Positions 33,304 to 60,862 are shown, counted from the first letter of the stretch. The stretch: DNA of 64,000 nucleotides from an uncultured Clostridia bacterium (GCA_944388795.1 CALXKD010000001.1:16084-80083), one strand, 5' to 3'. A program made the numbers and translations. The notes: a model not told the origin generated them from the letters alone.

Positions 33304-33339
33304 TGTCCAATTTGGGACGTTTCTGTTTGAGACATTTTT
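33304..33339 (+). repeat. Stop-proximal 36-nt element, copy 2, directly after the accB stop
   Basis: tgtccaatttgggacgtttctgtttgagacattttt. Confidence 0.7.
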
Positions 33340-45314: not shown

Positions 45315-46023
45315 ATGAAAATAAAAGATAAGAGAAGGAAACATATGGTAAATATATTATTAGTTGAGGATGATAAAAATATTGCAAATACAATTTCATA
45401 TTATTTACAACAAGAAGGGTTCTTAATAGGCACAGCAAGAACCGTTAAAGAAGGAATAGAAGAAATAAAAGAGAACCTATATGATGTGATGTTATTAGAT
45501 ATTAATTTGCCAGATGGTACAGGATATGAATTATATGAAAAAATGAAAAAAATCCAAGAAATACCAACCATTTTCTTAACTGCATTAGATGAAGAAAAGG
45601 ATATTGTAAAGGGATTTGATTTAGGAGCAGAGGACTATATCACGAAGCCATTTCATGCTGGTGAATTATTATCAAGAATCAAAAATGTATTAAGACATAG
45701 TAAAATAAAAGAGAAAGAAGAAGCAATTAAAATAAACAATGTAGAAATGAATTATACGATTCGGAAGAGTATTAAAAGATGATAAAGAGATAGAATTAAC
45801 AGCATTAGAATATAAAATACTAGGAATGTTATTTAAAAACAAAGGAAGAATAGTTACTAGAGAACAGATTTTATCCTATATATGGGATAATGAAGAGAAT
45901 TTTGTAAATGATAATACATTAACTGTATATATCAAAAGGATTAGAGAAAAAATAGAAAAAGATGCCAATCATCCAGAAATTATAAAAACAGTAAGAGGAC
46001 TGGGATATAAAATATCTGATTAA
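45315..46023 (+). pseudogene. OmpR-family response regulator, split into 45315-45782 and 45826-46023 by a +1 frameshift from one extra C at 45762
   Basis: Receiver domain LLVEDD...DINLPDGTG...KPF. The winged-helix domain resumes in the +1 frame as (G)RVLKDDKEIELTALEYKILGMLFKNKGRIVTREQIL...TVRGLGYKI. Junction acgattCggaag. Confidence 0.8.
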
Positions 46024-46044
46024 AAATAAAGTAAAGGAAAAGAT

Positions 46045-47262
46045 ATGAATACAAAACAAAAACGAAACTTGTATATTTCTATATCTGCCATTGTAATATG
46101 TATTGTTATATGCATTACATTTGTGATTATATATATCCAAAAAGAATATAAGAAGAATATGTATATTTATACCAATCAAGTTATTGCTAAAATTGTAGAA
46201 AAATATCCTGAACAAGAAGAGGAGATTATACAGGATATATTTTTAAATGATGATATAGATAATACAGAGTTAGAAAATATTTTAAGTAAATATGGATTTA
46301 ATGAAGAAAATATTGATATGGAAAACGATAACTTTAAAATAGTATATAAACCTATACTTATATTTTCTTTCATTTTCATAATAGGTGTTTTAGGAATTAT
46401 CAGAATATATGCAATCTACATAAGAAAACAAAATCAAAAGTTGAAAAAATTAGATGCGTATTGTAAAGAAATATTAAAAGGAAATTATATCATAGATTTA
46501 AAAGAGCAAGATGAAAGTGATTTTAGTAAATTAAAAAATGATATTTATGATATGACCATTATGTTAAAAGAAAAAAATAGTTTATTAGAAAAAAATAACA
46601 AAGATTTTGAAAAATTGATAGCAGATATTTCTCATCAATTAAAAACGCCACTAACTTCTTTAAATTTGATTAATGACATTTTATATACAGATTTACCAGA
46701 AGAAAAGAAAAAAGAATTTTTAGATAGTAGTCAAAAAGAACTAGAAAAAATTAATTGGCTCATAAAAACTGTATTAAATATAGCCAAATTAGACTCAAAA
46801 ACACTGATTTTAGACAAAAAGAATGAAAATGCATATCATTTATGCTTAGAAGTAAAAAACAATTTTAAAGCCATGTGTGAGATAAATCATGTAGATATAG
46901 AAATTGTATCCAATAAAGAAGAAACCATTAATTGTGATAAAAAATGGACAATAGAAGCTATGAATAATATTGTGAAAAATGCAATTGAGCATGGTGCAAA
47001 AATGATAACCATACAACTAGAAGAAAATACGATGTATACAAAAATTACAATAAGAGATAATGGAGAAGGGATAGACAAAGAAGATTTAGGACATATTTTT
47101 GACAGATTTTATAAAGCAAAAAATAGTAAAGAAAGTAGTTTAGGTATTGGACTTGCCTTTTGTAAAAGTATTATTAGAAATCAAGATGGAGATATTCGTG
47201 TAAAAAGTTCTAAAAAAGAAAAAGATACTTGGACAGAATTTATGATTAAATTATATAAATAA
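46045..47262 (+). CDS. Sensor histidine kinase
   Basis: Two TMs. H-box ISHQLKTPLTS, N-box NAIEHG, G1 DNGEGI, G2 GIGLAF. Confidence 0.85.
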   Translation: MNTKQKRNLYISISAIVICIVICITFVIIYIQKEYKKNMYIYTNQVIAKIVEKYPEQEEEIIQDIFLNDDIDNTELENILSKYGFNEENIDMENDNFKIVYKPILIFSFIFIIGVLGIIRIYAIYIRKQNQKLKKLDAYCKEILKGNYIIDLKEQDESDFSKLKNDIYDMTIMLKEKNSLLEKNNKDFEKLIADISHQLKTPLTSLNLINDILYTDLPEEKKKEFLDSSQKELEKINWLIKTVLNIAKLDSKTLILDKKNENAYHLCLEVKNNFKAMCEINHVDIEIVSNKEETINCDKKWTIEAMNNIVKNAIEHGAKMITIQLEENTMYTKITIRDNGEGIDKEDLGHIFDRFYKAKNSKESSLGIGLAFCKSIIRNQDGDIRVKSSKKEKDTWTEFMIKLYK

Positions 47263-47368
47263 AAAATTGAATAAGTCATTTTAGAGTCACTTTTATGTAG
47301 TAATATAATACTAACAATAAAAGTGACATTTTATATATTTGCTTAAAACATAAGAAAGGAGATTGTTT

Positions 47369-48049
47369 ATGGAGATATTAAAAGTAGAAAATCTAACGAA
47401 AAAATACGGTAAAAAAGATACAGAGGTAGTTGCATTAGACAATATATCTTTTAGCGTGAATAAGGGAGAATTTGTAGCTATTGTAGGAGCTTCTGGAAGT
47501 GGAAAATCCACCTTACTACATCTAATCGGAGGTGTAGATAAACCAACCAGTGGAAAAGTATATATTAATGGAACAGATATCTATTCTTTGAATAATGATA
47601 ATTTAGCAATTTTTAGAAGAAGGCAAGTAGGACTTATCTATCAATTCTATAATTTAATTCCTATCTTAAATGTAAAAGAAAATATTACATTGCCATGTGA
47701 TTTAGATGGGCAAAAAGTAGATGAAAAGAGATTGAATGAATTGTTATATATTCTTGGATTAGAAAAAAGAATTAATCACTTACCAAATGAGTTATCAGGA
47801 GGACAACAACAAAGAGTTTCTATTGGAAGGGCTATGATGAATCATCCAAGTATTGTGTTAGCAGATGAACCAACTGGAAATTTGGATAGTAAAGCCTCAA
47901 GAGAAATTATTGATTTATTAAAAGTATCAAATCAGAAATATAATCAAACCTTAATTGTCATTACCCATGATGAAAATATTGCTCTAGAGGCAGATAGAAT
48001 TATTACAATACAAGATGGAAAGTTGATGAGTGATGAGAAAATAAAGTAA
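47369..48049 (+). CDS. ABC transporter ATP-binding protein (MacB/FtsE-like)
   Basis: Walker A GASGSGKST, signature LSGGQQQRV, Walker B VLADEPTGNLD. Confidence 0.9.
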   Translation: MEILKVENLTKKYGKKDTEVVALDNISFSVNKGEFVAIVGASGSGKSTLLHLIGGVDKPTSGKVYINGTDIYSLNNDNLAIFRRRQVGLIYQFYNLIPILNVKENITLPCDLDGQKVDEKRLNELLYILGLEKRINHLPNELSGGQQQRVSIGRAMMNHPSIVLADEPTGNLDSKASREIIDLLKVSNQKYNQTLIVITHDENIALEADRIITIQDGKLMSDEKIK

Positions 48050-48062
48050 AGGGGAGAGAAGG

Positions 48063-50648
48063 ATGAAAATTTTAAATACATTAACACTCAAAAATTTAAA
48101 ATTAAATAAGAAGAGAACAATTGTGACTATTATTGGTATTTCTCTTTCTGTTGCTTTAATATGTGCCATCACAACATTTACAGTTAGTATTCAAAAATCT
48201 TTACTAGAAAGAGAAATCAAAACAAATGGAAATTATCACATTCGTGTACAAGATATATCAAAAGAAAATGAAAAATATTTGGAGAATAATGCTAAAATAG
48301 AGGATTTACAAATATCACAAGAGATCGGATATGCCTACTTAGAAGAATCTCAAAATGAAAACAAACCCTATGCTTATATCGAAGGATATGATGAGAAACT
48401 TTTGCAAAATGGAGGAATTGTTTTAGTAGAAGGAAGATTACCAGAAAATGAAAATGAAATTGTAATACCAGAACATGTTATTCAAAATGGAAAAGTAAAC
48501 TGGAAGGTTGGCGATACCATAGAATTAGATATTGGTAATCGATACAAAGGAGAATATATATTAAATCAGTCAAATCCATATTATACAGACCAAGATAGAT
48601 TAGATAGAAAAGAAAGTGGGATTGAAGATGATTTAGAACAAGAAACCTTTGTTGCAAATACCAAAAAAACATTTACAATTGTAGGTATTATGGAACGATT
48701 AAATAGTGAGAGTTATTCTGCTCCAGGTTATACCATGATAACAAAATTAGATAAGATTGATGATACCAAAAATGTAAATATGTCTATTATATTAAAAGAT
48801 CCAACAGAAGTATATGAGTTTGAAGATTATTTAAAAAATGATTTACAAATTGATAAAACAAATATTTCTGAAAACCAAGATTTATTGTATTACATGGGAA
48901 TCTTCAAAAGTGATAGAATGGAAAGTTTTGTTTTAGCCATGATAGCAATTGTGATTGGTATTATTGTTTTGACTTCTGCCTTTGTTATCAAGAATAGTTT
49001 TAGTATATCTCTTACAGAAAAAACAAGGGAATTAGGAATGATAGCAAGTGTAGGAGCAACAGCAAAACAAATTAGAAAAAGTATCTTTTTTGAAGGTGCT
49101 ATATTAGGACTCATTTCTATACCATTAGGAATTGTAATAGGCATTGTAGCAATTGGAATTGTATTAGCAATTGTTAATGGAATTATCAATTCAGGAAGTA
49201 CGCCATTAATTGATAATTTTGAATTACATTTAACCATATCTGGTATTGCTATTTTAGTAGCTATCATTGTATCGATTGTTATGATTATCATTTCATTAAT
49301 TAGACCAAGTTATCGAGCAGGGAAAATATCACCAATTGATGCTATAAGAGAAAGTTCAGATATAAAAGTAAAAAAGAATAAGCGTAAATATAAGGAATAT
49401 AAACTAACAAAAAGAATATTTGGAATAGAAGGCGTGATTGCTAGAAAGAATTTTAGAAGAAGTAGAAAAAGATATAGAACAACTATATTTTCCATATTTC
49501 TAAGCATTGTCTTGTTTATCTCTATGAATGCTTTTGCTGAAAGTGTATTTGGATTATCTTCTTTAGAATATCAAGTGTCAAGGATTAATTTAACAGTATA
49601 TAGTAATAATCAGACAGAAGAAGAAAAAGAAAACTATTTTAATAAAATTAAAGATTTAGATGGAATCAAAGAATATGTAATTTTACAAATGGCATATGCG
49701 CATATTGATAATCAAAAAATATATACAGAAAAAGCATTAGAACATTATTCAGAAATGAATGGATTAACGATTTATTCACTTGGTGATGAAGCTTATAGAA
49801 ACTATGTATCCGAATTAGGACTAAATTATGAAGAGGTCAAAGATGAAGCGATTCTTTGCGATACAAGAATTTTATATGAATATGAAGAGGGAAAAGATGG
49901 TGTCAAACGAGTAGAAACAAATCTAACCAATTTGAATGCAGGAGATACATTAGAATATTATAATATGGAAGATGAAGAAGGAAACCTATCAGAAGAAGGA
50001 AGTATCAAAATTGCTAAAAGAGCGGATAAATATCCATTAGGTTTATTATTTCAAGATACACATCCTGTTATTATTATCTCAGATGAGATGATGGAAAACT
50101 TCGAACATGATGTAGTTGCTATGCATATAAATGCAGAAGATCCATATAAATTACAAGAGGAAATTGTAGAAATTGATAAAACCAATCAAAGTAATATTTA
50201 TAATGCAGAAGAAGATGTAAGAGCAGCAAGAAACATGAATCTAATTGTATCTATATTTGTATATGGATTTATAGTAGTGATTAGCATTATTGGTGTAACG
50301 AATATATTTAATACTATAACCACCAATATGGCATTAAGAAATAGAGAATTTGCGATATTAAAATCTATAGGTATGACAAACAAAGAATTTAAGAGAATGA
50401 TTCATTATGAAAGTTTTATATATGGCTTAAAAGCACTTATATTTGGATTGCCAGTAGGTGTCGCATTATCTTATCTAATCTATACAGTTACAGCAGATGT
50501 CTATACAACAGATTATGAACTTCCTATAATACCAATTTTTATTTCTATTATATTTGTATTTGCCATTATCTTTATGACGATGCGATATGCTGTTAAGAAA
50601 ACTAAAAATCAGAATATTATTGAAACCATTAGAAAAGAGAATATTTAA
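48063..50648 (+). CDS. ABC transporter permease with two FtsX/MacB-type domains (4+4 TM, two large extracytoplasmic domains)
   Basis: 861 aa. Duplicated FtsX architecture. Gene order RR-HK-ATPase-permease is typical of peptide-antibiotic sensing/detox modules. Confidence 0.8.
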   Translation: MKILNTLTLKNLKLNKKRTIVTIIGISLSVALICAITTFTVSIQKSLLEREIKTNGNYHIRVQDISKENEKYLENNAKIEDLQISQEIGYAYLEESQNENKPYAYIEGYDEKLLQNGGIVLVEGRLPENENEIVIPEHVIQNGKVNWKVGDTIELDIGNRYKGEYILNQSNPYYTDQDRLDRKESGIEDDLEQETFVANTKKTFTIVGIMERLNSESYSAPGYTMITKLDKIDDTKNVNMSIILKDPTEVYEFEDYLKNDLQIDKTNISENQDLLYYMGIFKSDRMESFVLAMIAIVIGIIVLTSAFVIKNSFSISLTEKTRELGMIASVGATAKQIRKSIFFEGAILGLISIPLGIVIGIVAIGIVLAIVNGIINSGSTPLIDNFELHLTISGIAILVAIIVSIVMIIISLIRPSYRAGKISPIDAIRESSDIKVKKNKRKYKEYKLTKRIFGIEGVIARKNFRRSRKRYRTTIFSIFLSIVLFISMNAFAESVFGLSSLEYQVSRINLTVYSNNQTEEEKENYFNKIKDLDGIKEYVILQMAYAHIDNQKIYTEKALEHYSEMNGLTIYSLGDEAYRNYVSELGLNYEEVKDEAILCDTRILYEYEEGKDGVKRVETNLTNLNAGDTLEYYNMEDEEGNLSEEGSIKIAKRADKYPLGLLFQDTHPVIIISDEMMENFEHDVVAMHINAEDPYKLQEEIVEIDKTNQSNIYNAEEDVRAARNMNLIVSIFVYGFIVVISIIGVTNIFNTITTNMALRNREFAILKSIGMTNKEFKRMIHYESFIYGLKALIFGLPVGVALSYLIYTVTADVYTTDYELPIIPIFISIIFVFAIIFMTMRYAVKKTKNQNIIETIRKENI

Positions 50649-50722: not shown

Positions 50723-51166
50723 TTATCTTACAACATATACGTATGTATCAAAAAAATCACACTCGTAATTAACATCATTATCTTGGCATATGTACATACA
50801 TTTCGAAAAGTTTAACTCAATTTGACTATTACCAGAATTTGATATCCATATAGCATTTGACCTTTTTGTAAAGCACATAAATCCACAAAGATTGTGGATA
50901 TTACCTTTGTACGGATAATGACATTTGTTAAACACTCTAATGACACAGTTTGCGTCGTCTGGTGATACTTGGTTAACTTCACGAAATCCTGCCCTTAGAA
51001 TGTTTTCAATGGCTATTTCTCGAAGCGTTTGAATACTAGGAAAGTCCATTTCTCTTCCTGTACTATCCATGGGGATTCCATTTTTTTCACAAAAACTTAT
51101 TTGATTAAAATGGATATTCCGGATTTTCTCACATTCTTTTCTTGAAAGAACAAATTTTACAACCAT
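50723..51166 (-). CDS. Cys-rich hypothetical protein (147 aa) in a GC-elevated segment
   Basis: No family recognised. 9 Cys, several His. Confidence 0.35.
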   Translation of the reverse strand: MVVKFVLSRKECEKIRNIHFNQISFCEKNGIPMDSTGREMDFPSIQTLREIAIENILRAGFREVNQVSPDDANCVIRVFNKCHYPYKGNIHNLCGFMCFTKRSNAIWISNSGNSQIELNFSKCMYICQDNDVNYECDFFDTYVYVVR

Positions 51167-51436
51167 AATAATCCTCCTTGAACATATTGATGTGTTACAT
51201 ATAATATTAAACTAAGTAGTCGGAGAGGAAGCTCTCTTACTAATTAGTAATAAAGGAAAATAAATATATATGAATAAGGAATTTCCTTATGTGAACAATA
51301 GTATATCATGATTTCTTATGATTTTCCATACTTTATCTTTATAAAAAACAAATGTCAAATAAGTGATTTTTATTGAAGAAAAAATCGTTTTATGATAGGA
51401 TTATATTAATGAAATGAAAAGTTGAAGAGGGAAAAT

Positions 51437-52570
51437 ATGAGTACAAAAGAAATTGTAGAAGAAAAACAATTAGTAAAAAGTGAAGTAGAGGAGTATGCCA
51501 AGTTCGATATATTAAGATATGCACAAGTTTGGGAGGATGCAGATATCTTAATACAAGCATTAGATATACATGAAAATGATAATATATTGTCTATTGCATC
51601 AGCAGGAGAAAATGCAATTAGCATGTTAATCAAAAATCCAAATAAAGTTTTTGCAATTGATTTAAGTGAAAATCAAATTGCTTGTACAGAATTGAAAATT
51701 GTAGCATATAAATATTTAGATTATCAAGAATGTATGGAGTTTATTGGTGTTTTTGATTGTAATGATAGAATCAAAACTTATCAAAAAATTGCAGATAAAC
51801 TATCTAAAGATACAAGAACATATTTAGAAAGCAATTTAGAAATGCTAGAAAAAGGAATTATTCATACAGGAAAATTCGAGAAATATTTTCATCTATTTGG
51901 TAAAAAAATTTTACCATTTATTCATAAAAAATCAATAAGAGAAGAATTATTACAAAAGAAAACAAAGGAAGAGAGAATTCAATTTTATGATCAGAAATGG
52001 AATAATATGAGATGGCAAATGCTTTTTAGGATATTCTTTTCTAAAACCGTCATGGGAAAATTGGGAAGAGATAAAGCCTTTTTTCGTTATGTCCATGTAA
52101 ATGTGGCTGAGCATATTTTAGAAAGAACGAAATATGCTATCACAGAATTAGATACATCAGAAAATTCCTATTTACAGTATATTATTCATGGAAAATATGA
52201 TGAAAATGTGTTGCCAGTAGCATATAGAAAAGAAAATTTTGAGATGATTAAAAAAAATATAGATAAAATTTACTTGTTAAAAGATTCTGTTGAAGATTTT
52301 ATTCAAAAAGAAGAGATAGATTATATTAGTAAATATAATTTAAGCGATATCTTTGAATATATGAGTGATGAGCAAATGTGCAAAATATTTGAAAAGATAT
52401 TTACCAAATCACCACCTGGAACAAGAATTGCTTATTGGAATATGTTAGCTGATAAAAGAGCATCAAAATATTTTGATAATTTAGTATACAAGGAAAAAGA
52501 ATCAAAAGAATTATTTAAACAAGATAAAGCCTTTTTCTATAGTAAATTTATTATAGAGGAGGTCATGTAA
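51437..52570 (+). CDS. DUF3419 / BtaA-like protein (SAM:diacylglycerol 3-amino-3-carboxypropyltransferase family)
   Basis: LRYAQVWEDADILIQAL...ILSIASAGENAISML...VFAIDLSENQIACTELK matches the DUF3419 signature (YAQxWEDP...ItSaGcNaL...AVDln.aQ). ORF may start at 51422. Confidence 0.6.
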   Translation: MSTKEIVEEKQLVKSEVEEYAKFDILRYAQVWEDADILIQALDIHENDNILSIASAGENAISMLIKNPNKVFAIDLSENQIACTELKIVAYKYLDYQECMEFIGVFDCNDRIKTYQKIADKLSKDTRTYLESNLEMLEKGIIHTGKFEKYFHLFGKKILPFIHKKSIREELLQKKTKEERIQFYDQKWNNMRWQMLFRIFFSKTVMGKLGRDKAFFRYVHVNVAEHILERTKYAITELDTSENSYLQYIIHGKYDENVLPVAYRKENFEMIKKNIDKIYLLKDSVEDFIQKEEIDYISKYNLSDIFEYMSDEQMCKIFEKIFTKSPPGTRIAYWNMLADKRASKYFDNLVYKEKESKELFKQDKAFFYSKFIIEEVM

Positions 52571-53917
52571 ATGAACATAGAGTGGTTAAGTATTGGATTT
52601 GTTTTATGTATGCTTTTGATTGCTATGTGTATGATAAAAATAATCGAAAAAAAGACCAAAATACATGCAGAATTGAAACGAAAACTATTACATATGACAA
52701 TGGGATTGATTATGCTAACTTTTCCTTATGTATTTCATAATGTACTTTCTGTAGGAATATTAGCAATTATTGCATTAGCAATATTAATTTTATTAAAACA
52801 TACAAAATTAAAAGAAGGATTAGGAACAGTATTATATAGTGTCAATAGAGAATCTTTAGGTGAAATTTTTTTTGTGATATCTGTATTCTTGATTTTCTAT
52901 TTATCAAAAGGAAATAAAGTTTTATACAGTATTCCTATATTAATTTTAACCTTTGCAGATAGTGCAGCAGCATTAATTGGAAAGAATTATGGAAAGAAAA
53001 ATTTAGCAGAGCTAAATGAAGATGCCAAAAGTATTGAAGGAAGTTTTATCTTTTTTATGGTGGCTTTTGTAGCAACATTGGTATCGCTATTACTGTTCAC
53101 AGATGTAGGAAGAGAAGAAACATTAATCATTGCAACGATTGTAGGATTTAATGTAGCTTTAGTTGAAATGATTTCACATAGTGGAAATGATAATCTATTG
53201 ATTCCATTAACAACATATGCATTTTTGGCAACACATATGGGGTTAGGTGTAGAACAATTAAGAATCAATTTCATGATATTAGGTGTGATATTTATACTAG
53301 TAACGATTGCCAATAGAGTAAAGGCATGGAGCAAACTGGCATTAGCTGAAACACTGGTAGTAGGGTATCTAACGATTACATTATATGGAATATATGCCAT
53401 TATACCACCATTGATTTTGTTTTTAACAGTTATGAGATTTCCTAAAGTTGCGGAAAAAGAACAGCACAATCTATATGATGCTAGAATTATTGAAACCAAT
53501 GTGATTTTAGGAATAGCTATTTGTGGAATTGTAGCAATTACTGGATGGAAAGCAGAATTTTTTATGATATATAGTTTAGTATATAGCATGCATTTAGCTA
53601 TTAATACATTTGTAAGATTAAAATATTATTTTAATTTATCAGAAATGGATAGTATCATTTTATCTTTTGCGAAAGGATTATGTTTTATCTTTTTACCAAG
53701 TTTAGTCATTCAAAATCTGGTATTTCATAAATTGCCTAGCATATCAATGATCGTTCTTATGGTTATATGCTTATTAGCTAGTTGTTTTATGATATATATA
53801 CAAAAGAAAAAGGTAGAAAAAGAAGAAATTTCAATAAAAAATGGATATATGCATACAGAAATTGTGCTAGTATTAACAGCTATCATCTGTTTTATCCAAT
53901 ACTTTAAAATTGCATAG
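52571..53917 (+). CDS. Polytopic membrane protein. N-terminal half resembles CTP-dependent polyprenol (dolichol/phytol/farnesol) kinase of the CTP_transf_1 superfamily (CdsA/CarS-related). C-terminal half adds extra TMs.
   Basis: RKLLH near the N-terminus. FADSAAALIGKNYGKKNL (compare GDGxAAIxGxxxGK). KSIEGSFIFFMVAF (compare KSWEGS). At least 10 predicted TMs. Confidence 0.55.
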   Translation: MNIEWLSIGFVLCMLLIAMCMIKIIEKKTKIHAELKRKLLHMTMGLIMLTFPYVFHNVLSVGILAIIALAILILLKHTKLKEGLGTVLYSVNRESLGEIFFVISVFLIFYLSKGNKVLYSIPILILTFADSAAALIGKNYGKKNLAELNEDAKSIEGSFIFFMVAFVATLVSLLLFTDVGREETLIIATIVGFNVALVEMISHSGNDNLLIPLTTYAFLATHMGLGVEQLRINFMILGVIFILVTIANRVKAWSKLALAETLVVGYLTITLYGIYAIIPPLILFLTVMRFPKVAEKEQHNLYDARIIETNVILGIAICGIVAITGWKAEFFMIYSLVYSMHLAINTFVRLKYYFNLSEMDSIILSFAKGLCFIFLPSLVIQNLVFHKLPSISMIVLMVICLLASCFMIYIQKKKVEKEEISIKNGYMHTEIVLVLTAIICFIQYFKIA

Positions 53918-53952
53918 GAGGAAAGTATGATAAGCATCATACAAAAAAGAAA

Positions 53953-54873
53953 ATGAAATTTGAAATTATAGAGAATCAAGAAAATATAAAAGTAACAGTT
54001 TTAGAAAATGGAGAAGAAAGGGCAAAAGCTACTTGCTATTTTCAAAATACACCAAAACAAAATGGTGAAAAAATCGGAACAATCGGAGAAATGGACATTT
54101 TAGATAAGCAATATGGAGTAATATTATTAGAAAAATGTGAAGAAATTTTAAAAGAAAAAGGATTACATTATATAGTTGCACCAATGAATGAAAATACATG
54201 GGGAAAATATAGAACAATGAAGCAGTCAAATGGAGAACCTCTATTTTTATTAGAGAATGTCAATCCTATGAGTGATAATGAGATATTATTAAAAGCAGGT
54301 TATCAAGAGATATATACATATACTTCAACCAAAGGAAAGTTGAAAAATGCTTACCAATCTCAAAGTATAGAAATGATGAGGAAAAAAATACAAGAAAAAG
54401 GTATTACTATTAGAAATTTTAATAAAGAAAATTATATGGAAGATCTAAAGAAAATATATCATATTTCATTAAAAAGCTTTGGAAGAAATCCGCTATATAC
54501 ACCGATTGATGAAGAACCTTTTTTAAAACAATATATACCATATGTTCATTTAGCTGATGAAGATATTATTTTATTAGCAGAAAAAGATGGAAAAGAAATT
54601 GGATTTATATTCTGCATACCAGATTTTGAAGAAGCAAAAAGAGGAGAAAAGCTTAGTACGATTATTGTGAAAACTGTTGCAGTGATACCAGAATTTCAAA
54701 AGCTTGCTATTGGAAATGTATTAATGAATGATATTGCAAAAATTGCCAAACAGAAAGGATTTAAAAATTGGATATGTGCTTTTATGTATGCCAATAATAC
54801 TTCACAAAAAATGGCAAAACGAAATCAGACAGAAGTTATAAGAGAGTATGCCTTGTATGGAAAGGAAATATGA
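53953..54873 (+). CDS. GNAT-fold acyl-CoA N-acyltransferase-like protein (two-lobed)
   Basis: C-terminal lobe EIGFIFCIPDF...VAVIPEFQKLAIGNVLMNDIAKIAKQKGF resembles a GNAT core. Weak. Confidence 0.35.
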   Translation: MKFEIIENQENIKVTVLENGEERAKATCYFQNTPKQNGEKIGTIGEMDILDKQYGVILLEKCEEILKEKGLHYIVAPMNENTWGKYRTMKQSNGEPLFLLENVNPMSDNEILLKAGYQEIYTYTSTKGKLKNAYQSQSIEMMRKKIQEKGITIRNFNKENYMEDLKKIYHISLKSFGRNPLYTPIDEEPFLKQYIPYVHLADEDIILLAEKDGKEIGFIFCIPDFEEAKRGEKLSTIIVKTVAVIPEFQKLAIGNVLMNDIAKIAKQKGFKNWICAFMYANNTSQKMAKRNQTEVIREYALYGKEI

Positions 54874-54912
54874 TTCTTTTTCAACTAAAAAGAAGGGGAT
54901 GAAATACACAAG

Positions 54913-56406
54913 ATGAGAAATTTAGCCTATCAACTAATCAAAAATTATGAAAAAATGCCAGATAAAATATGTTTAGTCGAAAAAAATACACAAGTTACTT
55001 ATGCAGAGCTATATAACCTAGTAGCTAATTTTAAAGACAATTTGAAACGTAAAGGAATTAAACAAGGAGATAAAGTGTTAGTACTAGTTCCTATGTCAAT
55101 CAATTTATATGTAACTTTACTTTCTATTTGGTCATTGGGAGCGATTCCTTGTTTTATGGATGCAGGCTTTATAAAAAGCGGATTAAAGAAAAATGAATTT
55201 GATGATATTAATGGTATTGTTGGAACGACTAAATATATTGTATACAGCCAAGTGAATGAAAATTTAAAAAACTTAAAAATAAAGATAGATGTCAAACAAA
55301 TTAAAAAAACACCGTTTAGTAGAAAGTTAGTAGTAGAAGAAGTAGAAAAAGATTTTCCGGGTATTTTAACATATACAAGTGGAACAACAGGTGTTCCCAA
55401 GATAGCAGCAAGGACACATGAATTTTTAGAAAATCAAGGAAATATATTAAAACAAATAGCCAATTATGAAGAAAAAGATAGGGAACTTTCCACTATTCCC
55501 ATATTTACATTATCCAATATTTATGTTGGAATTACAACTGTCATAGCAAATGGGAATTTCACCAATTTAGGAAAATCAAATCCTAGAAAGTTAGTAAAAC
55601 AAATAAGAGATAAAAACATTAATAGAATCATGGCTTCACCTGGACTATTACAAGTCATTGTAAATTATTGTATTGATAAGGATATAAAATTAGAAGGTGT
55701 GAAAAAAATCTATACAGGTGGAGGAGCTGTATTTTTAGATTTAATCAAAAAATTACAACAGGTTTTTGAAAATGCAACCATACGTACAATATATGGATCA
55801 ACAGAAGCAGAACCAATTGCTATATTACATATAGAGGATATGACAAAACAAGACATAAAAGACACAGGAAATGGAAAAGGTATTTTAGCAGGAGAGATTG
55901 TTGGCGTAAAAGAATGTAAAATCATAAAACCACCCAAAGAACCAATCGGAACTATCACAAAGGACAAATTTTTAAATTTACAAACAAATGAAGTAGGAGA
56001 GATTGTTGTAACAGGAACGAATGTGCTAAAAGGATATGTTGGTGGCATAGGTGATAAAGAAAACAAATTTACAGTAGAAGATACTATATATCACAGAACA
56101 GGAGATATGGGACAAATCGATGAAAAAGGTAGATTATGGTTAAGAGGAAGAGTAAAAGAGCCATATTTTCATATTGAAGCAGCTTTACATGCAAAATTTG
56201 CAATTGGAAAGACAGCTGTATTTGAAAATGATTCAAAATTGATTCTGGTATTGGAAAATAATGAAAAAACATCAATAGAAGAAATTAAAAAAGCGATTCC
56301 TTTTGAAAAGATTGATGAAATCAAATATGTTCCAAAGATACCAGTGGATAAAAGACATAGTACAAAGGTAGATTATAATGAATTAAGAAAAATATTAAAT
56401 ATATAA
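54913..56406 (+). CDS. Adenylate-forming enzyme (acyl-CoA synthetase / fatty acyl-AMP ligase family)
   Basis: AMP-binding motif LTYTSGTTGVPK. Conserved YHRTGD and K near the C-terminus. Confidence 0.75.
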   Translation: MRNLAYQLIKNYEKMPDKICLVEKNTQVTYAELYNLVANFKDNLKRKGIKQGDKVLVLVPMSINLYVTLLSIWSLGAIPCFMDAGFIKSGLKKNEFDDINGIVGTTKYIVYSQVNENLKNLKIKIDVKQIKKTPFSRKLVVEEVEKDFPGILTYTSGTTGVPKIAARTHEFLENQGNILKQIANYEEKDRELSTIPIFTLSNIYVGITTVIANGNFTNLGKSNPRKLVKQIRDKNINRIMASPGLLQVIVNYCIDKDIKLEGVKKIYTGGGAVFLDLIKKLQQVFENATIRTIYGSTEAEPIAILHIEDMTKQDIKDTGNGKGILAGEIVGVKECKIIKPPKEPIGTITKDKFLNLQTNEVGEIVVTGTNVLKGYVGGIGDKENKFTVEDTIYHRTGDMGQIDEKGRLWLRGRVKEPYFHIEAALHAKFAIGKTAVFENDSKLILVLENNEKTSIEEIKKAIPFEKIDEIKYVPKIPVDKRHSTKVDYNELRKILNI

Positions 56407-56417
56407 AGGGGTAAAAT

Positions 56418-57335
56418 ATGAATCAAATAAAAAAATGGTATACATACCAAAAAGAGAGATTTCCAGTACTTGTATATGGACTATATGTGTTTTGTATTGT
56501 ATTTGCTACTTTTTGTTATAGTTACTATTACTATAATGCAGGCATTTTAACATCACCAATACCTACAACCATGTATTTGGAAAGTACAGGGATACAATAT
56601 ATAAAACTAATCCCTATGTTTTTAGTAGCTTTTTTACAGTTTTTAATGGTAAGGATATTAGATGAATTTAAAGATTATGAAGAGGATTGTAAATATAGGC
56701 CATATAGACCTGTACCAAGAGGATTAGTTAAATTAAGTGAATTAAAAGTTTTATTAATCATATGTGCTGTTTTACAAGTGATGATTACTATATTTTTTTC
56801 TAATTCAATATATAATATCTTATCATTTATCTGTTTAATGGTTGTATGGGCCTATATATTACTCATGAATAAAGATTTCTTTATGAAAAAATTTTTGGAC
56901 AAGCACTTATTAATTAATGTTGCTTTAGATGAAATGGTATTACCTTTATTGATTATATATCTAAGTACCTTTATTTGTCCTACAGGTTCTTGGTTAGCAG
57001 TAATGGCATATATCATATCTTGGATAGTAGAAGTTGCTAGAAAGATTAGGTGTAAAGAAGATGAAGAAGAGGGAGTTAAAACCTATACAGCTGTTTTAGG
57101 TATTGGTAAAGCAATGATACTAATATTTGTATTGGAAACTTTGTTAATGCTTGTACAAGGTATAATCCTAGGACAGAAAAATTATATCTGGATAGTTGCT
57201 TTATATATATTAGCCAATATTTCTAATATTTTATTTGCAAAAAAGAAAACAAGAAAGATGGCAAAATTAGCAGAACTTTCGGCAAATATCTATATAGCCA
57301 TTGTATATTGTAGTTTAGTAATATTAATTTTATAG
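56418..57335 (+). CDS. UbiA-family integral-membrane prenyltransferase
   Basis: First Asp-rich motif LDEFKDYEEDCKYRPYRPVPRG (DxxxD...RPxRPxPxG). About 8 TMs. 305 aa. Confidence 0.65.
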   Translation: MNQIKKWYTYQKERFPVLVYGLYVFCIVFATFCYSYYYYNAGILTSPIPTTMYLESTGIQYIKLIPMFLVAFLQFLMVRILDEFKDYEEDCKYRPYRPVPRGLVKLSELKVLLIICAVLQVMITIFFSNSIYNILSFICLMVVWAYILLMNKDFFMKKFLDKHLLINVALDEMVLPLLIIYLSTFICPTGSWLAVMAYIISWIVEVARKIRCKEDEEEGVKTYTAVLGIGKAMILIFVLETLLMLVQGIILGQKNYIWIVALYILANISNILFAKKKTRKMAKLAELSANIYIAIVYCSLVILIL

Positions 57336-57346
57336 GAGAACAGATA

Positions 57347-59902
57347 ATGAAATATGTATTAAAACAAAATAGTAAACAATATGAATTTATGGGAGGAAAA
57401 GCAACTGCTTTGGCAAAAATGGGACAAGCAATTGATAATATTCCAAAGTGGTTTGTTGTGTCCTATAAGGGCTTTGATAAAGAGGAAAAAAATATAAAAG
57501 AAGAAGCAATAAAAGAAGTAGAAGAATCTTTAAAAATGTTTCCAGATGATACCTATTTTGCGATTCGTTCATCAGCAGGAAACGAGGATTCCAAAGAAAC
57601 ATCTTTTGCAGGACAATTTGATACTTTTTTATATATTCCTAAAAAAGAGGTTATCGAAAAAATAAAAGAAGTATATTTATCTGCTTTTTCAGAAAGAATT
57701 GAAACATATCGAAAAGAAAATCATATAGAAGAGGTAATGATTCCATCAGTTATTGTGCAAAAAATGGTAAAATCAGAAAAAGCAGGTGTGGCATTTGGAG
57801 CAAATCCGACTACTTCTAATATAAAAGAGATTGTCATTAATGGTGTATATGGATTAGGAAGTAGCTTAGTAGATGGTGTGGCAACAGCAGATACCTATAC
57901 CATTTTAAATGGTAAAATTACAAAAACAATAGCTAAAAAAGATTATTGTCATATTTATGTAGATGGTGAAATTAAGCAAGAAATAGTAAACGAAAAACAA
58001 AAGGATAAAGCAGTTTTAACAGATAACCAGATATTAGAAGTTAAAGAACTAGTAGAAAAAGCAAATACATTTTTTGGAAGATTTCAAGATATTGAATGGG
58101 CTTATGAAGATGGAAAGTTATACCTATTGCAATCTAGACCAATTACAACATTAGGAATAGTAAAAAATAAAGAAGAAAAGTTAAATGTATTTGACAATAG
58201 TAATATTGTAGAAAGTTATGGAGGAATTACAACCCCTTTAACATTCTCTTTTATTAGAACTGTCTATGAAAATGTATATTTAGAATTGTGTAAAATATTT
58301 CATGTAAAAGCAGAAAAAATAGAAATGAATGCACAGATGTTTAAAAACATGTTAGCTTTAATAGACGGCCGTGTGTATTATAATCTATATGGTTGGTATG
58401 GGTTACTTTCCATGTTCCCAGGATTAGGAAAAAACAAGAAATTCATGGAGCAAATGATGGGAGTAAAAGAATCTTTGCCAGATGACTTGTTTCCAGTACC
58501 ACAAGCTACATTTTATGATAAAATTGGATTGATTTCAACTGGATATGGATTATTAAAAGGATTTATAAAGATAAGAAAAATGACAGATAAATTCTATGTA
58601 AGATTGAATGAAGCATTAGAAGATAAAGACATCCAGCATATGGATTTATATGAACTACATGATTATTACTATGAATTGGAAGGAAAACTGTTACATAAAT
58701 GGGATGCACCACTAGTCAATGACTTTTTGGCAATGATTTTTTATGGACAATTGAAACAAGAATGTGAAAAATTATTTAAAGAAAATGGAAACTTGATACA
58801 TAATGATTTATTATGTGATGAAGGAAATATCATTAGTGCAGAGCCAGCGAAAAGAATTCGAGAAATGGCAGAGATTGCAAAAGATGATGAAAAACTTTTA
58901 AAATTATTAGAAAATGAAGATATGTTATATATCCAAAAAGAACTTCCTAAATATCCAGAATTTTATGAAAAAATACAAGCATATTTAGATAAATTTTCAG
59001 ATAGATGTTTGCAGGAGTTAAAATTAGAAACATTAACATTAAAAGATAATCCTATTAGCTTATATCATTCAATATTGACATTTGCAAGAAGAATGCAAAA
59101 AACAAAAGTAAATGCATTAGATTCTGTAGAAGCTAGAAAACAGGCAGAAAGAAAAGTAAAACAAATTTTAAAGTTTAAGCCATTGGAAAAAGCTAAATTT
59201 AACTTTTTATTAAAACAAGCAAGATATACAGTAAAAAATAGAGAAAATCTTAGGTTTGAAAGAACAAGACTTTTTGGAAGAGTAAGAGAAATCTTTTTAA
59301 GAATAGGATATATATTAACTTCTTTAAATGTTATAGAAGAAAAAAGAGACATATTTTATTTAGAAGTAGATGAAATTTTATACTATATCGATGGAAAATC
59401 TACGACCAATAATTTGAAAGATTTAATTGCGATACGAAAGAAAGAGTATGAAAGATATAAGGAAACTAATCCAGATGAAAGATTTTACACTTATGGAGCA
59501 GTAAATATAGGAAATAACTTTAAAAAGGAAATAGAAGTTCACGCAGATAAAACACATATAGATAAGATAAAAGATGAAAAAGAAACTTTAAAAGGAATTG
59601 GAGCATCACCAGGAAGAATTAGTGGACGAGTAAAAGTAATAGATAATCCGGCAAATGCAAAATTAGAACAAGGAGAAATTTTAGTTGCTGAGTATACAGA
59701 TCCGGGTTGGATTATGCTATTTCCGGCTGCAAGTGGAATTTTAGTAGAAAGGGGAAGTTTATTATCTCATTCAGCAATTGTTTCAAGAGAACTTGGTATA
59801 CCTGCAGTAGTAGGAATTACAGGATTACTGGATAATATAAAAACCGGTGATATAGTGGAATTAGATGGAACAACAGGCATTGTAAGAAAAATGTCCAATT
59901 AG
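57347..59902 (+). CDS. PEP-utilising phosphotransferase with rifampin-phosphotransferase-like architecture: N-terminal PPDK_N ATP-grasp, central domain, C-terminal phospho-His swivel domain
   Basis: N-terminus MGGKATALAKMGQ...IPKWFVV. C-terminus ERGSLLSHSAIVSRELGIPAVVG (PEP-utilisers motif). No TIM-barrel PEP/pyruvate domain. 851 aa. Confidence 0.7.
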   Translation: MKYVLKQNSKQYEFMGGKATALAKMGQAIDNIPKWFVVSYKGFDKEEKNIKEEAIKEVEESLKMFPDDTYFAIRSSAGNEDSKETSFAGQFDTFLYIPKKEVIEKIKEVYLSAFSERIETYRKENHIEEVMIPSVIVQKMVKSEKAGVAFGANPTTSNIKEIVINGVYGLGSSLVDGVATADTYTILNGKITKTIAKKDYCHIYVDGEIKQEIVNEKQKDKAVLTDNQILEVKELVEKANTFFGRFQDIEWAYEDGKLYLLQSRPITTLGIVKNKEEKLNVFDNSNIVESYGGITTPLTFSFIRTVYENVYLELCKIFHVKAEKIEMNAQMFKNMLALIDGRVYYNLYGWYGLLSMFPGLGKNKKFMEQMMGVKESLPDDLFPVPQATFYDKIGLISTGYGLLKGFIKIRKMTDKFYVRLNEALEDKDIQHMDLYELHDYYYELEGKLLHKWDAPLVNDFLAMIFYGQLKQECEKLFKENGNLIHNDLLCDEGNIISAEPAKRIREMAEIAKDDEKLLKLLENEDMLYIQKELPKYPEFYEKIQAYLDKFSDRCLQELKLETLTLKDNPISLYHSILTFARRMQKTKVNALDSVEARKQAERKVKQILKFKPLEKAKFNFLLKQARYTVKNRENLRFERTRLFGRVREIFLRIGYILTSLNVIEEKRDIFYLEVDEILYYIDGKSTTNNLKDLIAIRKKEYERYKETNPDERFYTYGAVNIGNNFKKEIEVHADKTHIDKIKDEKETLKGIGASPGRISGRVKVIDNPANAKLEQGEILVAEYTDPGWIMLFPAASGILVERGSLLSHSAIVSRELGIPAVVGITGLLDNIKTGDIVELDGTTGIVRKMSN

Positions 59903-59926
59903 GGACGTTTCTGTCTGGACATTTTT
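59893..59926 (+). repeat. Stop-proximal 36-nt element, copy 3; overlaps the last codons of the phosphotransferase gene
   Basis: tgtccaattagggacgtttctgtctggacattttt; the stop codon TAG is inside the element. Confidence 0.7.
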
Positions 59927-60067: not shown

Positions 60068-60103
60068 AAAAATGTCCCAATAGGAAACGTCCCCAATTGG
60101 ACA
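60068..60103 (-). repeat. Stop-proximal 36-nt element, copy 4, directly after the stop of the DUF4130-like gene; convergent with copy 3
   Basis: Minus strand tgtccaattggggacgtttcctattgggacattt. Confidence 0.7.
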
Positions 60104-60862
60104 TTATGGTTCTTCAATTAAATCTTGCCAATATTTTTTAGGCATAAATTGCATTTGACATCTAGCATTTTTTCTTTCTTGTATGGCAATGGTTTTGAAA
60201 AATAATTTCCAAAGTTCTTGGTATTTTTGTTCTTCTTCAGTAACATCAGGTATTGTTAAATTGGTGCTATCAATGATTTTGTATTCTTGTGAGTTATATA
60301 AAAAACAAATATTTCTGTTCTTATCGTGAATGATAAAGTTTTGTGTAGGTAGTCTTTTAATAAAGTGATGTCCTAAAGGTTCTATAATATTGTTATCTGG
60401 GTGAATAGAGGCATAATACAAATTTTTTCCTATTTCCATAAATCGAAGTAATCCTTTTAACTTATGGCATTCTGATAAAGCTCTTTTTCTCATATTGATA
60501 ACAGAAAAGACATAGGAAATAGTAAGCATAGTGTTAATTTTAGGTCCGATGTCAAATCCATCACATAAATATTTTAGAATTTTAATTTCTTTCTCTTTTC
60601 CATCTGATAAAAAAGCATAAAAACTATTATATAGAGCTTCATAGCAAATATTTTTATTAATTCCTTCAAAAACACGTTTTGCCTTTTCATAATTGGTATT
60701 TATATATTGTGTTTTATCTAAAAAATTTTGTATATATTCCTCTTCTGAAACAATTTTTTGTGGCAATGTTTTATGAGAATAGCTCTCAAAAACAATGGTT
60801 AATAATCCATCAAATGTACCATCATATAAATAGGTTGTGTTTACAAGCTTCCAGTTAGACAT
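60104..60862 (-). CDS. Probable DNA metabolism protein (TIGR03915/DUF4130-like; uracil-DNA-glycosylase-superfamily relative), partner of the radical SAM protein
   Basis: 252 aa. Overlaps and is co-directional with the upstream radical SAM gene. This pairing is characteristic of the family. Confidence 0.5.
   Translation of the reverse strand: MSNWKLVNTTYLYDGTFDGLLTIVFESYSHKTLPQKIVSEEEYIQNFLDKTQYINTNYEKAKRVFEGINKNICYEALYNSFYAFLSDGKEKEIKILKYLCDGFDIGPKINTMLTISYVFSVINMRKRALSECHKLKGLLRFMEIGKNLYYASIHPDNNIIEPLGHHFIKRLPTQNFIIHDKNRNICFLYNSQEYKIIDSTNLTIPDVTEEEQKYQELWKLFFKTIAIQERKNARCQMQFMPKKYWQDLIEEP

Follow-up and report, generated by a model that had tools for sequence, protein, structure and literature searches.

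The stretch of DNA considered here comprises 64,000 nucleotides (nt) from an uncultured Clostridia bacterium (GCA_944388795.1 CALXKD010000001.1:16084-80083) and is called the window in the following. At positions 51437-59902 it carries six genes, here named g1 to g6, all on the plus strand. An earlier note, written from the sequence alone, had described them as co-directional and tightly packed and had seen in them a candidate pathway to an unusual prenyl/amino lipid. The packing is confirmed, as the six open reading frames (ORFs) are separated by gaps of 0, 35, 39, 11 and 11 nt, in this order.

The first gene, g1 (51437-52570), encodes a DUF3419 protein that appears to form, with its cluster homologues, a cluster-specific subfamily of the BtaA-superfamily transferases dependent on S-adenosylmethionine (SAM). 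It is followed by g2 (52571-53917), a polytopic membrane protein of 448 amino acids (aa), whose N-terminal half (residues ca 1-220) has the fold of the CdsA/CarS/polyprenol-kinase superfamily and whose C-terminal half consists of ca eight further helices. Next come g3 (53953-54873), a predicted tandem-GNAT N-acyltransferase dependent on acyl-CoA, and g4 (54913-56406), an adenylating enzyme of the ANL superfamily that is predicted to be an acyl-CoA or acyl-AMP ligase. The last two are g5 (56418-57335), a membrane prenyltransferase of the UbiA superfamily that lies outside the characterised subfamilies, and g6 (57347-59902), an 851-aa phosphotransferase built like rifampin phosphotransferase (RPH) from an ATP-grasp domain, a central substrate domain and a phospho-His swivel domain. 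From their arrangement, the six genes would constitute one operon and one functional unit.

Conservation of the gene cluster

A search of genome contigs with g2 returned 10 loci, which are close relatives only (70-96% identity), and the taxonomic breadth is therefore described here from plasmid records and metagenome contigs. Another 80 loci, which represent soils, peats and sediments, came from a metagenome scan with a g2 alignment. The metagenome loci were searched with custom hidden Markov models of seven families, and those with at least 6.2 kb upstream and at least 2.8 kb downstream of g2, 30 in number, were taken as assessable. All six families are adjacent in 28 of them, at G+C contents of 0.44-0.72.

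In 23 of these 28 complete loci there is also a gene for HMG-CoA reductase (HMGR), which is the first gene in most loci and encodes a class-I-like enzyme that scores 306-345 bits against an equivalog cutoff of 441.8. The order HMGR-UbiA-RPH-DUF3419-g2-GNAT-ligase is found in 22 loci. When the order changes, two sub-blocks are kept, namely (HMGR)-UbiA-RPH and DUF3419-g2-GNAT-ligase. The window has the order DUF3419-g2-GNAT-ligase-UbiA-RPH, that is, the sub-blocks are swapped and HMGR is absent, and the same is the case for the locus of a Hadza gut genome (L016). The window copy is thus best read as a rotated, HMGR-less form of a seven-gene operon that recurs across bacterial phyla.

The window belongs to a lineage of uncultured Clostridia that live in the guts of chickens and humans, and on other contigs of this lineage the cluster lies at the same place. 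L016 has all six genes in the same order and with 58-77% protein identity (70% for g2), and its flanks are different, with an AddA-type helicase upstream. More distant relatives of g2 (ca 30-40% identity) are found in the same gene company on the contigs L017, L019/L020 and L022/L023, and, within the limits of their shorter sequence, on L018 and L021. Two cultured organisms carry the genes as well. In Brevibacillus laterosporus B9 (L024) the order is HMGR-UbiA-RPH-DUF3419-g2-GNAT-ligase-P450, while the alphaproteobacterium Roseinatronobacter sp. S2 has the six families on a 137-kb plasmid. The operon is located at ca 461.5-475 kb of NZ_CP011076.1 in the former and at 128.2-136.2 kb of NZ_CP121116.1 in the latter. 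The RefSeq names of the latter are generic ('UbiA family prenyltransferase', 'PEP/pyruvate-binding domain-containing protein', 'DUF3419 family protein', 'AMP-binding protein' and two 'hypothetical protein').

Start and stop codons of neighbouring genes abut or overlap, as seen in the 0-nt gap between g1 and g2 in the window and in the overlapping coordinates of other loci. A survey of the flanks of ca 70 loci found no further conserved partner gene. Gene content and synteny are direct observations, and the synteny holds in 28 of the 30 assessable metagenome loci, in Brevibacillus and in Roseinatronobacter. The Firmicutes setting to which the earlier note had limited itself is too narrow, since the operon spans several phyla and includes an alphaproteobacterial plasmid.

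Several loci depart from the usual composition. A cytochrome P450 gene is found with the operon or with g2 in 7 loci (among them L024:12874-14100, L043:5869-7230 and L051:4222-5625), and the P450 of Brevibacillus scores best, though far below the cutoffs, against the NCBIfam models of terpene oxidases (albaflavenone monooxygenase and pentalenene oxygenase). In other, non-usual contexts (L051:605-7024, L061:4952-11371, L043:4699-11335 and L055:1766-4413), relatives of g2 stand in a group together with an enolase-superfamily protein, a GH3 amido synthetase and a P450; at L043 the order is sulfotransferase-P450-MFS-DUF3419-g2. One further relative is part of an HMGR-g2 pair among glycoside hydrolase genes. 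The GH3 context is suggestive, because a single GH3 protein combines the two activities that are otherwise divided between an adenylase and an N-acyltransferase. At L016:17312-19123, starting 19 nt after the cluster, there is a gene for a 603-aa didomain protein (AMP-binding plus PP-binding), which has no counterpart in the window; some versions of the operon may use a carrier-bound acyl group.

An apparent DUF3419-g2 fusion (P0222, 596 aa, L017:9525-11791) was left out of the evidence. The contig has a split RPH gene and DUF3419 pieces in several frames, and the fusion is probably an assembly frameshift. In some assemblies of the window's own lineage, frame changes are also seen within g4 (L004:11276-12921) and near residue 747 of g6 (L009:7855-10477 and L011:14945-17564), which could be assembly errors or strain-level inactivation.

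The encoded proteins

Profile searches with Pfam back five of the six family assignments of the earlier note, while g2 is backed at the superfamily level only. None of the Pfam-confirmed proteins reaches an equivalog cutoff in NCBIfam. Fold comparisons were made against PDB libraries. The family and fold memberships given below are taken directly from these comparisons.

The g1 protein matches Pfam DUF3419 with 226.6 bits. Among plasmid records, its closest counterparts are the DUF3419 proteins from the clusters of Brevibacillus (45% identity) and Roseinatronobacter (39%), while all others are 20-25% identical to it. Over the whole set, the identity is 78% to the L016 protein, 39-47% to distant homologues of the cluster type and 23-25% to proteins linked to btaB. 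The linkage is seen in two DUF3419 genes outside such clusters, from Chondrinema and Rhizobium leguminosarum (loci L106 and L107), where a class I methyltransferase of ca 220 aa is encoded directly downstream and the arrangement is therefore that of btaA-btaB. In the alignment, g1 and the btaA-type proteins have a common SAM-binding core (Y..WED, SAGxN and an acidic residue after strand 2), with Y28, W32, E33, D34, G57, N59 and D75 invariant between them, and the cluster type has motifs of its own (NLSDIFEYMS, WNM and DKAFFY). No BtaB-like N-methyltransferase was found in the window cluster or among the recurrent flanking families of the ca 70 loci. Judged by these comparisons, g1 belongs with the BtaA-superfamily transferases without being orthologous to BtaA itself. 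The earlier note was thus right about the family, but its betaine-lipid reading is unsupported, because the g1 subfamily is distinct from the BtaA proteins linked to btaB and because BtaB is missing; nothing indicates a trimethylated betaine lipid as the product.

For g2, the full-length protein gives no match in either Pfam or NCBIfam. Its N-terminal 220 residues match CTP_transf_1 with 19.9 bits (E=7e-4), which is under the cutoff of 24 bits. An exhaustive search yields a family of 3033 representatives at 50% identity (E<=1e-3), mostly of 430-460 residues. When 65 diverse members are aligned, 16 residues prove invariant, all of them within the N-terminal half, in the motifs E34, R37-K38-x-x-H41, D130-x-x-x-A134, K153-x-x-E-G157-S and G205-x-D207-N208-x-x-x-P212. 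These positions coincide with the motifs named in the earlier note, and RKxxH, D..AA..G..G, KSxEGS and E......DNLxxP are invariant or nearly invariant columns of the family. These columns may be equivalent to the motifs of dolichol and phytol kinases, which end in E......DNLxxP, and G-x-D-N-L-x-I-P may resemble the kinase branch and not the PGHGG..DR.D signature of the cytidylyltransferases.

Matches to DUF92 at E<=0.01 are found for 5 of the 65 relatives, and one relative matches CdsA PRK11624 at E=8.8e-4. The N-terminal halves otherwise have almost no matches in NCBIfam, and the g2 profile has none among PDB sequences. The best natural fold matches are CdsA and CarS. The C-terminal half (ca eight helices) is weakly conserved and has no identifiable relative. 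Weak sequence evidence together with the fold evidence supports a place of g2 in the CdsA/CarS/polyprenol-kinase superfamily, at this level only. Of the earlier assignment to polyprenol kinase, CdsA or CarS the superfamily is retained, with a sub-threshold CTP_transf_1 score and no profile match above threshold.

We now turn to the two proteins of the putative acylation step. Residues 184-290 of g3 match Pfam GNAT with 48.7 bits, and a structure model based on 24 relatives has a pLDDT of 93.9. From the superposition of this model, g3 is a tandem GNAT of the MshD type, which refines the GNAT-like acyltransferase of the earlier note. Tandem-GNAT enzymes that superpose with g3 acylate small-molecule amines from acyl-CoA, and the fold matches include Eis and aminoglycoside acetyltransferases. 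Against the sequences of solved proteins, SidF included, the g3 profile has no match at E<0.01. The family has invariant residues of its own, for example W83, R87, E101, Y182-T183-P184 and K240, and the source names of its members include a cyanobacterium and a planctomycete.

The adenylating-enzyme family proposed for g4 is borne out by a Pfam AMP-binding match of 141.2 bits, with all equivalogs below cutoff. In NCBIfam, PRK09274 comes first (280.6 bits, cutoff 478), followed by the OleC type (160.8 bits, cutoff 900), and the nearest PDB match has 69 bits. The translation carries what we take to be the ANL core motifs, YTSGTTGVPK, YGSTE, TGD and a C-terminal Lys.

The UbiA assignment of g5 likewise holds, with 69.4 bits in Pfam (cutoff 34.2) and both acidic motifs intact. 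Among six homologues of different lineages, the invariant parts are an N-terminal YQxERFP motif, the first acidic motif D82-E-x-K-D86-x-E-x-D90 followed by R94, R97 and P100-R-G102, and the second acidic motif E205..RK..E216..GV.TY, which includes G219-V-x-T-Y. All NCBIfam matches are far below their cutoffs, the best being PRK13592 with 68.3 bits against 443. Among solved proteins the g5 profile is nearest to DGGGPS (E=2.6e-5), followed by chlorophyll synthase (E=1.2e-4), two enzymes that both place a prenyl group on an oxygen atom, and Rv3806c is absent among the PDB sequence matches. By NCBIfam and the PDB profile search, g5 could be assigned to none of the characterised UbiA subfamilies (DGGGPS, chlorophyll synthase, MenA, UbiA, Rv3806c and others).

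In closely related genomes the UbiA gene occurs in two alleles, of which the window carries the intact one. The second allele is always 994 nt long (L001:13848-14841, and also in L002, L006, L007, L008, L009, L011, L012 and L013). Its first ca 60 codons are in one frame and the remainder, from ..PEYQIQWIKLIPMFIV.., is in the +1 frame, and over residues 59-305 it is ca 69% identical to the allele of the window. Among seven loci, the ratio of nonsynonymous to synonymous substitution rates (dN/dS) of the downstream part is 0.08-0.31, which means that the second allele is still under selection; the possibility of a decaying pseudogene was rejected on the same grounds. The second allele is either a split enzyme of two polypeptides (a first-helix peptide and a 256-aa body) or a case of programmed +1 frameshifting.

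Finally, g6 matches Pfam PPDK_N with 191.7 bits and the PEP-utilizers swivel domain with 86.8 bits, and Rph_4th is among its precomputed matches. A TIM-barrel domain for binding of phosphoenolpyruvate (PEP) or pyruvate was not detected, as there is no Pfam match to PEP-utilizers_C. The best PDB matches are the Listeria RPH structures 5fbs/5hv1, with an alignment that spans the ATP-grasp and swivel domains including the catalytic His motif, and the g6 motif GSLLSHSAIVSRELGIPAVVG aligns to the 21-residue region of this motif in RPH. In NCBIfam the best model is the unnamed 'PEP synthase' PRK06241.2-2 (716 bits, cutoff 883). The models for PigC (331.8 bits of 1300), RedH and Rph all lie at ca 320-330 bits and far below their cutoffs, with Rph NF041857 at 318 of 999 bits; a further Rph model, NF000283, is at 219 of 1700, and that of true PEP synthase, TIGR01418, is at 240 bits against a cutoff of 740. 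Enzymes of the RPH and PEP synthase architecture use ATP. Because the domain for PEP or pyruvate is missing and g6 aligns with the ATP-using Listeria RPH, its phosphoryl donor should be ATP and not PEP. The architecture described in the earlier note is accordingly kept, but the label 'PEP-dependent' is not.

Flanking sequences and neighbouring genes

Upstream of the cluster there is an intergenic region of 270 nt (51167-51436, plus strand), which is likely to contain the operon promoter and the ribosome-binding site of g1. The neighbouring gene (50723-51166) is on the minus strand and the region is therefore divergent, as the earlier note had it. A GAGGG ribosome-binding site lies 7 nt before the ATG at 51437, for which reason this codon is favoured as the start of g1 over the TTG at 51422. 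A promoter match of the form TTGAAC-16-TATAAT is found at 51178-51205. It is important to note that such sites are no more frequent in this AT-rich sequence than chance would have it, as the promoter and terminator scan found 64 against 64.1 expected. Rfam gave no riboswitch or other family upstream of the cluster or anywhere in the window, permissive settings included. The G+C content of the window is 25-32% throughout and does not shift at the cluster.

The downstream end of the operon is marked by a repeated element, TGTCCAATTAGGGACGTTTCTGTCTGGACATTTTT, at 59892-59926 on the plus strand, which overlaps the stop codon of g6 and makes up the last codons of this gene together with the stop. 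The stop-proximal element reported earlier is thus real. It has the form TGTCCAATTRGGGACGTTTC...GGACATTTTT and contains the inverted repeat ATGTCC...GGACAT followed by a run of T. Four copies are present in the window, at 13762-13781 (minus strand), 33304-33323 (plus), 59892-59926 (plus) and 60070-60103 (minus), and all four abut or overlap a stop codon; no such match is to be expected by chance, with 0 in 100 shuffles. The copy at 60070-60103 is situated behind a minus-strand DUF4130 gene and faces the copy of g6. The element may be a repeat of the terminator type.

As to the neighbours, the upstream minus-strand gene is a 147-aa ORF without a Pfam match, and it is found at the same position on the six contigs L001-L006. 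Just beyond it, at 45315-50648 (L001:2775-8078), there are a two-component system and an ABC transporter similar to the BceAB type, consisting of an ATPase and an 861-aa MacB_PCD/FtsX permease. On L001-L006 the response regulator is called as two ORFs (Response_reg, 145 aa, and Trans_reg_C, 65 aa), which suggests a split or frameshifted regulator of the OmpR type. The gene downstream is convergent with the cluster. At 60104-62139 on the minus strand, a radical SAM/HHH protein (432 aa) and the DUF4130 protein (252 aa) are encoded with an overlap of 22 nt; both genes converge on the cluster and are outside it.

Proposed pathway, alternatives and related systems

The enzyme families of the conserved unit, with HMGR usually leading it, point to an amphiphile that bears an isoprenoid and is decorated with an amino acid. 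We tentatively propose, while stopping short of calling it probable, a membrane-associated pathway to a prenylated, N-acylated amphiphile of amino-acid type. In this proposal, g2, with its CTP-type polyprenol-kinase/CdsA fold, and g6 would activate an isoprenoid alcohol, perhaps by successive steps that lead to the diphosphate. The prenyl group would then be coupled by g5 to an oxygen nucleophile, to give an ether or an ester, and a hydroxyl would receive from g1 a SAM-derived 3-amino-3-carboxypropyl group or, less likely, a methyl group. The acylation would be the work of g4, which would activate a carboxylic acid, and of g3, which would transfer the acyl group to the new amine. We infer here the substrates, the order of the steps and the fate of the product, that is, whether it stays in the membrane or is exported.

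The isoprenoid link is suggested by the UbiA gene, by the HMGR at the head of the operon, by the fold of g2, nearest to CdsA and CarS, and by the P450 of Brevibacillus, whose best NCBIfam matches, far below the cutoffs, are to terpene oxidases. O-prenylation is proposed because the g5 profile is nearest to DGGGPS and chlorophyll synthase, and N-acylation of a small-molecule amine because g3 is a tandem GNAT like MshD and because a GH3 gene takes the place of the ligase and GNAT genes in a variant context. For the step of g1, the SAM-binding core held in common with btaA-type proteins speaks in favour. A more specific version, namely an undescribed and widespread bacterial pathway to a new class of lipids, prenyl ethers or esters with an N-acylated, SAM-derived head group of homoserine type, is in our judgement doubtful.

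A number of points weigh against the proposed pathway. The window copy has no HMGR, and its isoprenoid supply would therefore come from elsewhere in the genome. The score of g2 is below the Pfam threshold (19.9 vs 24 bits), and the choice between kinase and cytidylyltransferase for this protein depends on the presumed equivalence of its motifs. Since g1 is only ca 24% identical to btaA-type proteins, it could be a methyltransferase instead, and we know of no enzyme of the RPH/PEP synthase family that makes a prenyl diphosphate. The substrates of all six enzymes are read from their families only and are to be taken as predictions. Also, the accessory P450, MFS, sulfotransferase and A-T didomain genes fit an exported specialised metabolite as well as they fit a membrane lipid.

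This last option, in which a compact gene cluster makes a prenylated small molecule resembling an N-acyl amino acid for use as a signal or an antibiotic, overlaps with the proposed pathway in its chemistry; the only difference is where the product ends up. It agrees with the patchy and mobile-looking distribution of the operon, which is plasmid-borne in Roseinatronobacter and has different flanks in related Clostridia, with the accessory tailoring and export genes (P450 in 7 loci, MFS and sulfotransferase in L043, the A-T didomain in L016) and with the presence of the secondary-metabolism ligases PigC and RedH among the relatives of g6. However, no exporter is conserved with the core and the set of six includes two polytopic membrane enzymes, and we consider this fate unlikely. 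Turning to the envelope, one can also picture a polyprenyl-phosphate carrier for its modification, where g2 regenerates polyprenyl phosphate, g6 activates a small donor by phosphorylation, the UbiA enzyme joins both, and the remaining proteins tailor the carried group before its transfer outside the cell. UbiA-family enzymes are not limited to prenyl-diphosphate donors, as Rv3806c of Mycobacterium joins phosphoribosyl pyrophosphate with decaprenyl phosphate, g2 is related to the polyprenol-kinase/CdsA superfamily, and the operon of the window adjoins the BceAB-like transporter and two-component system, a type of system that responds to cell-envelope-active peptides. This adjacency is not kept, though, as L016 and other loci have different flanks, and the flank survey found no flippase, glycosyltransferase or extracytoplasmic transferase conserved beside the operon. 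The g5 profile is moreover nearer to DGGGPS and chlorophyll synthase, without Rv3806c among its PDB matches, which leaves the carrier with a small chance in our estimate.

We have also considered that the HMGR product itself might be the acyl donor. In such a mevalonyl-amide pathway, the adenylase would convert mevalonate to mevalonyl-CoA, the tandem GNAT would pass the acyl group to an amine, and the phosphotransferases and the UbiA enzyme would decorate the hydroxyls. The operon HMGR, which is divergent and below its equivalog cutoff, heads 23 of the 28 complete loci, and the second-best NCBIfam match of g4 is to OleC-type enzymes, which act on beta-hydroxy acids; mevalonate is one. A precedent is documented for the fungal fusarinine siderophores, with the mevalonyl-CoA ligase SidI and the two-domain GNAT-type transacylase SidF (PMC3709128, PMC11751504). 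However, at E<0.01 the g3 profile is related in sequence neither to SidF nor to another solved protein, g4 falls far short of the OleC-type cutoff, a SidH-like hydratase is lacking, and 5 of the 28 complete loci, and the window, have kept the ligase and the GNAT without HMGR. On balance this route appears quite improbable to us. The remaining option, an island for drug inactivation or a chance juxtaposition of unrelated genes, is extremely improbable. It is true that RPH-like kinases and Eis/AAC-like GNATs are families of antibiotic-modifying enzymes, that the best solved relative of g6 is RPH and that the folds matched by g3 include Eis and aminoglycoside acetyltransferases, but g6 is far below the RPH equivalog cutoffs (318 vs 999 and 219 vs 1700 bits) and the UbiA, DUF3419, HMGR and adenylase genes have no place in such an island. 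Chance juxtaposition is ruled out by the sub-blocks that are fixed in 28 of 30 loci over G+C contents of 0.44-0.72.

All enzymes of the cluster can be placed in known superfamilies and all fall short of the threshold for membership in a characterised family; no known pathway combines them. In the full-text literature, in which most subscription journals are not covered, no description of the cluster or of its gene combination was found, in keeping with the earlier statement that no described pathway of this composition is known from Firmicutes; nothing relevant on laterally transferred HMGR was found either. If the product is indeed a new isoprenoid amino-lipid or lipidated metabolite, four large uncharacterised groups would obtain a function at once, namely the cluster-type DUF3419 proteins, the g2 family with its 3033 representatives, a subfamily of UbiA and the non-RPH branch of the His-swivel phosphotransferases. 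The divergent class-I-like HMGRs of this operon would likewise have a role, apart from the mevalonate-pathway gene set. If the reading as a new lipid is true, the HMGR dedicated to the operon would account for HMGR genes found apart from such a gene set, and the g6 type would be the first enzyme of the PEP synthase/RPH family with a demonstrated role in the activation of lipids or isoprenoids. The operon occurs in chicken and human gut Clostridia as well as in bacteria of soil and peat, and at least two of its hosts are in culture.

Among the known systems, phytol salvage in plants and cyanobacteria proceeds from VTE5, a phytol kinase, via VTE6, a phytyl-phosphate kinase, to VTE2, a UbiA-family homogentisate phytyltransferase. 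The cluster resembles it in that a membrane protein of the CTP_transf_1/DUF92 superfamily adjoins a UbiA prenyltransferase and that a second phosphotransferase, g6, is at hand for a second phosphorylation, and by analogy a VTE5-to-VTE2 logic, as proposed before, may apply. However, the second kinase is here an RPH-type His-swivel enzyme and not a DUF92 protein, g2 has an extra C-terminal half of ca eight helices, and g5 is nearest to DGGGPS and chlorophyll synthase and not to the aromatic prenyltransferases. The archaeal ether-lipid pathway, with DGGGPS of the UbiA family and the CDP-archaeol synthase CarS, is related to the cluster proteins only remotely (14-15% identity), and its GGGPS, glycerol-1-phosphate dehydrogenase and CDP-alcohol transferase have no counterpart in the cluster.

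The BtaA/BtaB pathway to the betaine lipid DGTS in Rhodobacter and rhizobia has in common with the cluster the DUF3419 protein and its SAM-binding core (Y..WED and SAGxN). It does so without the UbiA, kinase, GNAT and ligase partners that g1 has here, whereas the BtaB partner is absent beside g1 and the identity is 23-25%, compared to 39-47% among the cluster type. With the fungal SidI/SidH/SidF system, the likeness is to the trio of HMGR, ANL ligase and tandem GNAT in the usual operon; the similarity to SidF is undetectable, the hydratase is missing here, and the window copy has no HMGR. The tandem GNATs MshD (mycothiol synthase), MAB_4324 and Eis are 10-15% identical to g3, whose family is set apart by its own invariant residues. 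With RPH and the prodiginine ligases PigC and RedH, g6 shares the three-domain architecture, the phospho-His motif and the lack of a PEP/pyruvate domain. It scores below every equivalog cutoff, however, and the fixed partnership with a UbiA gene is a feature of g6 and not of these enzymes.

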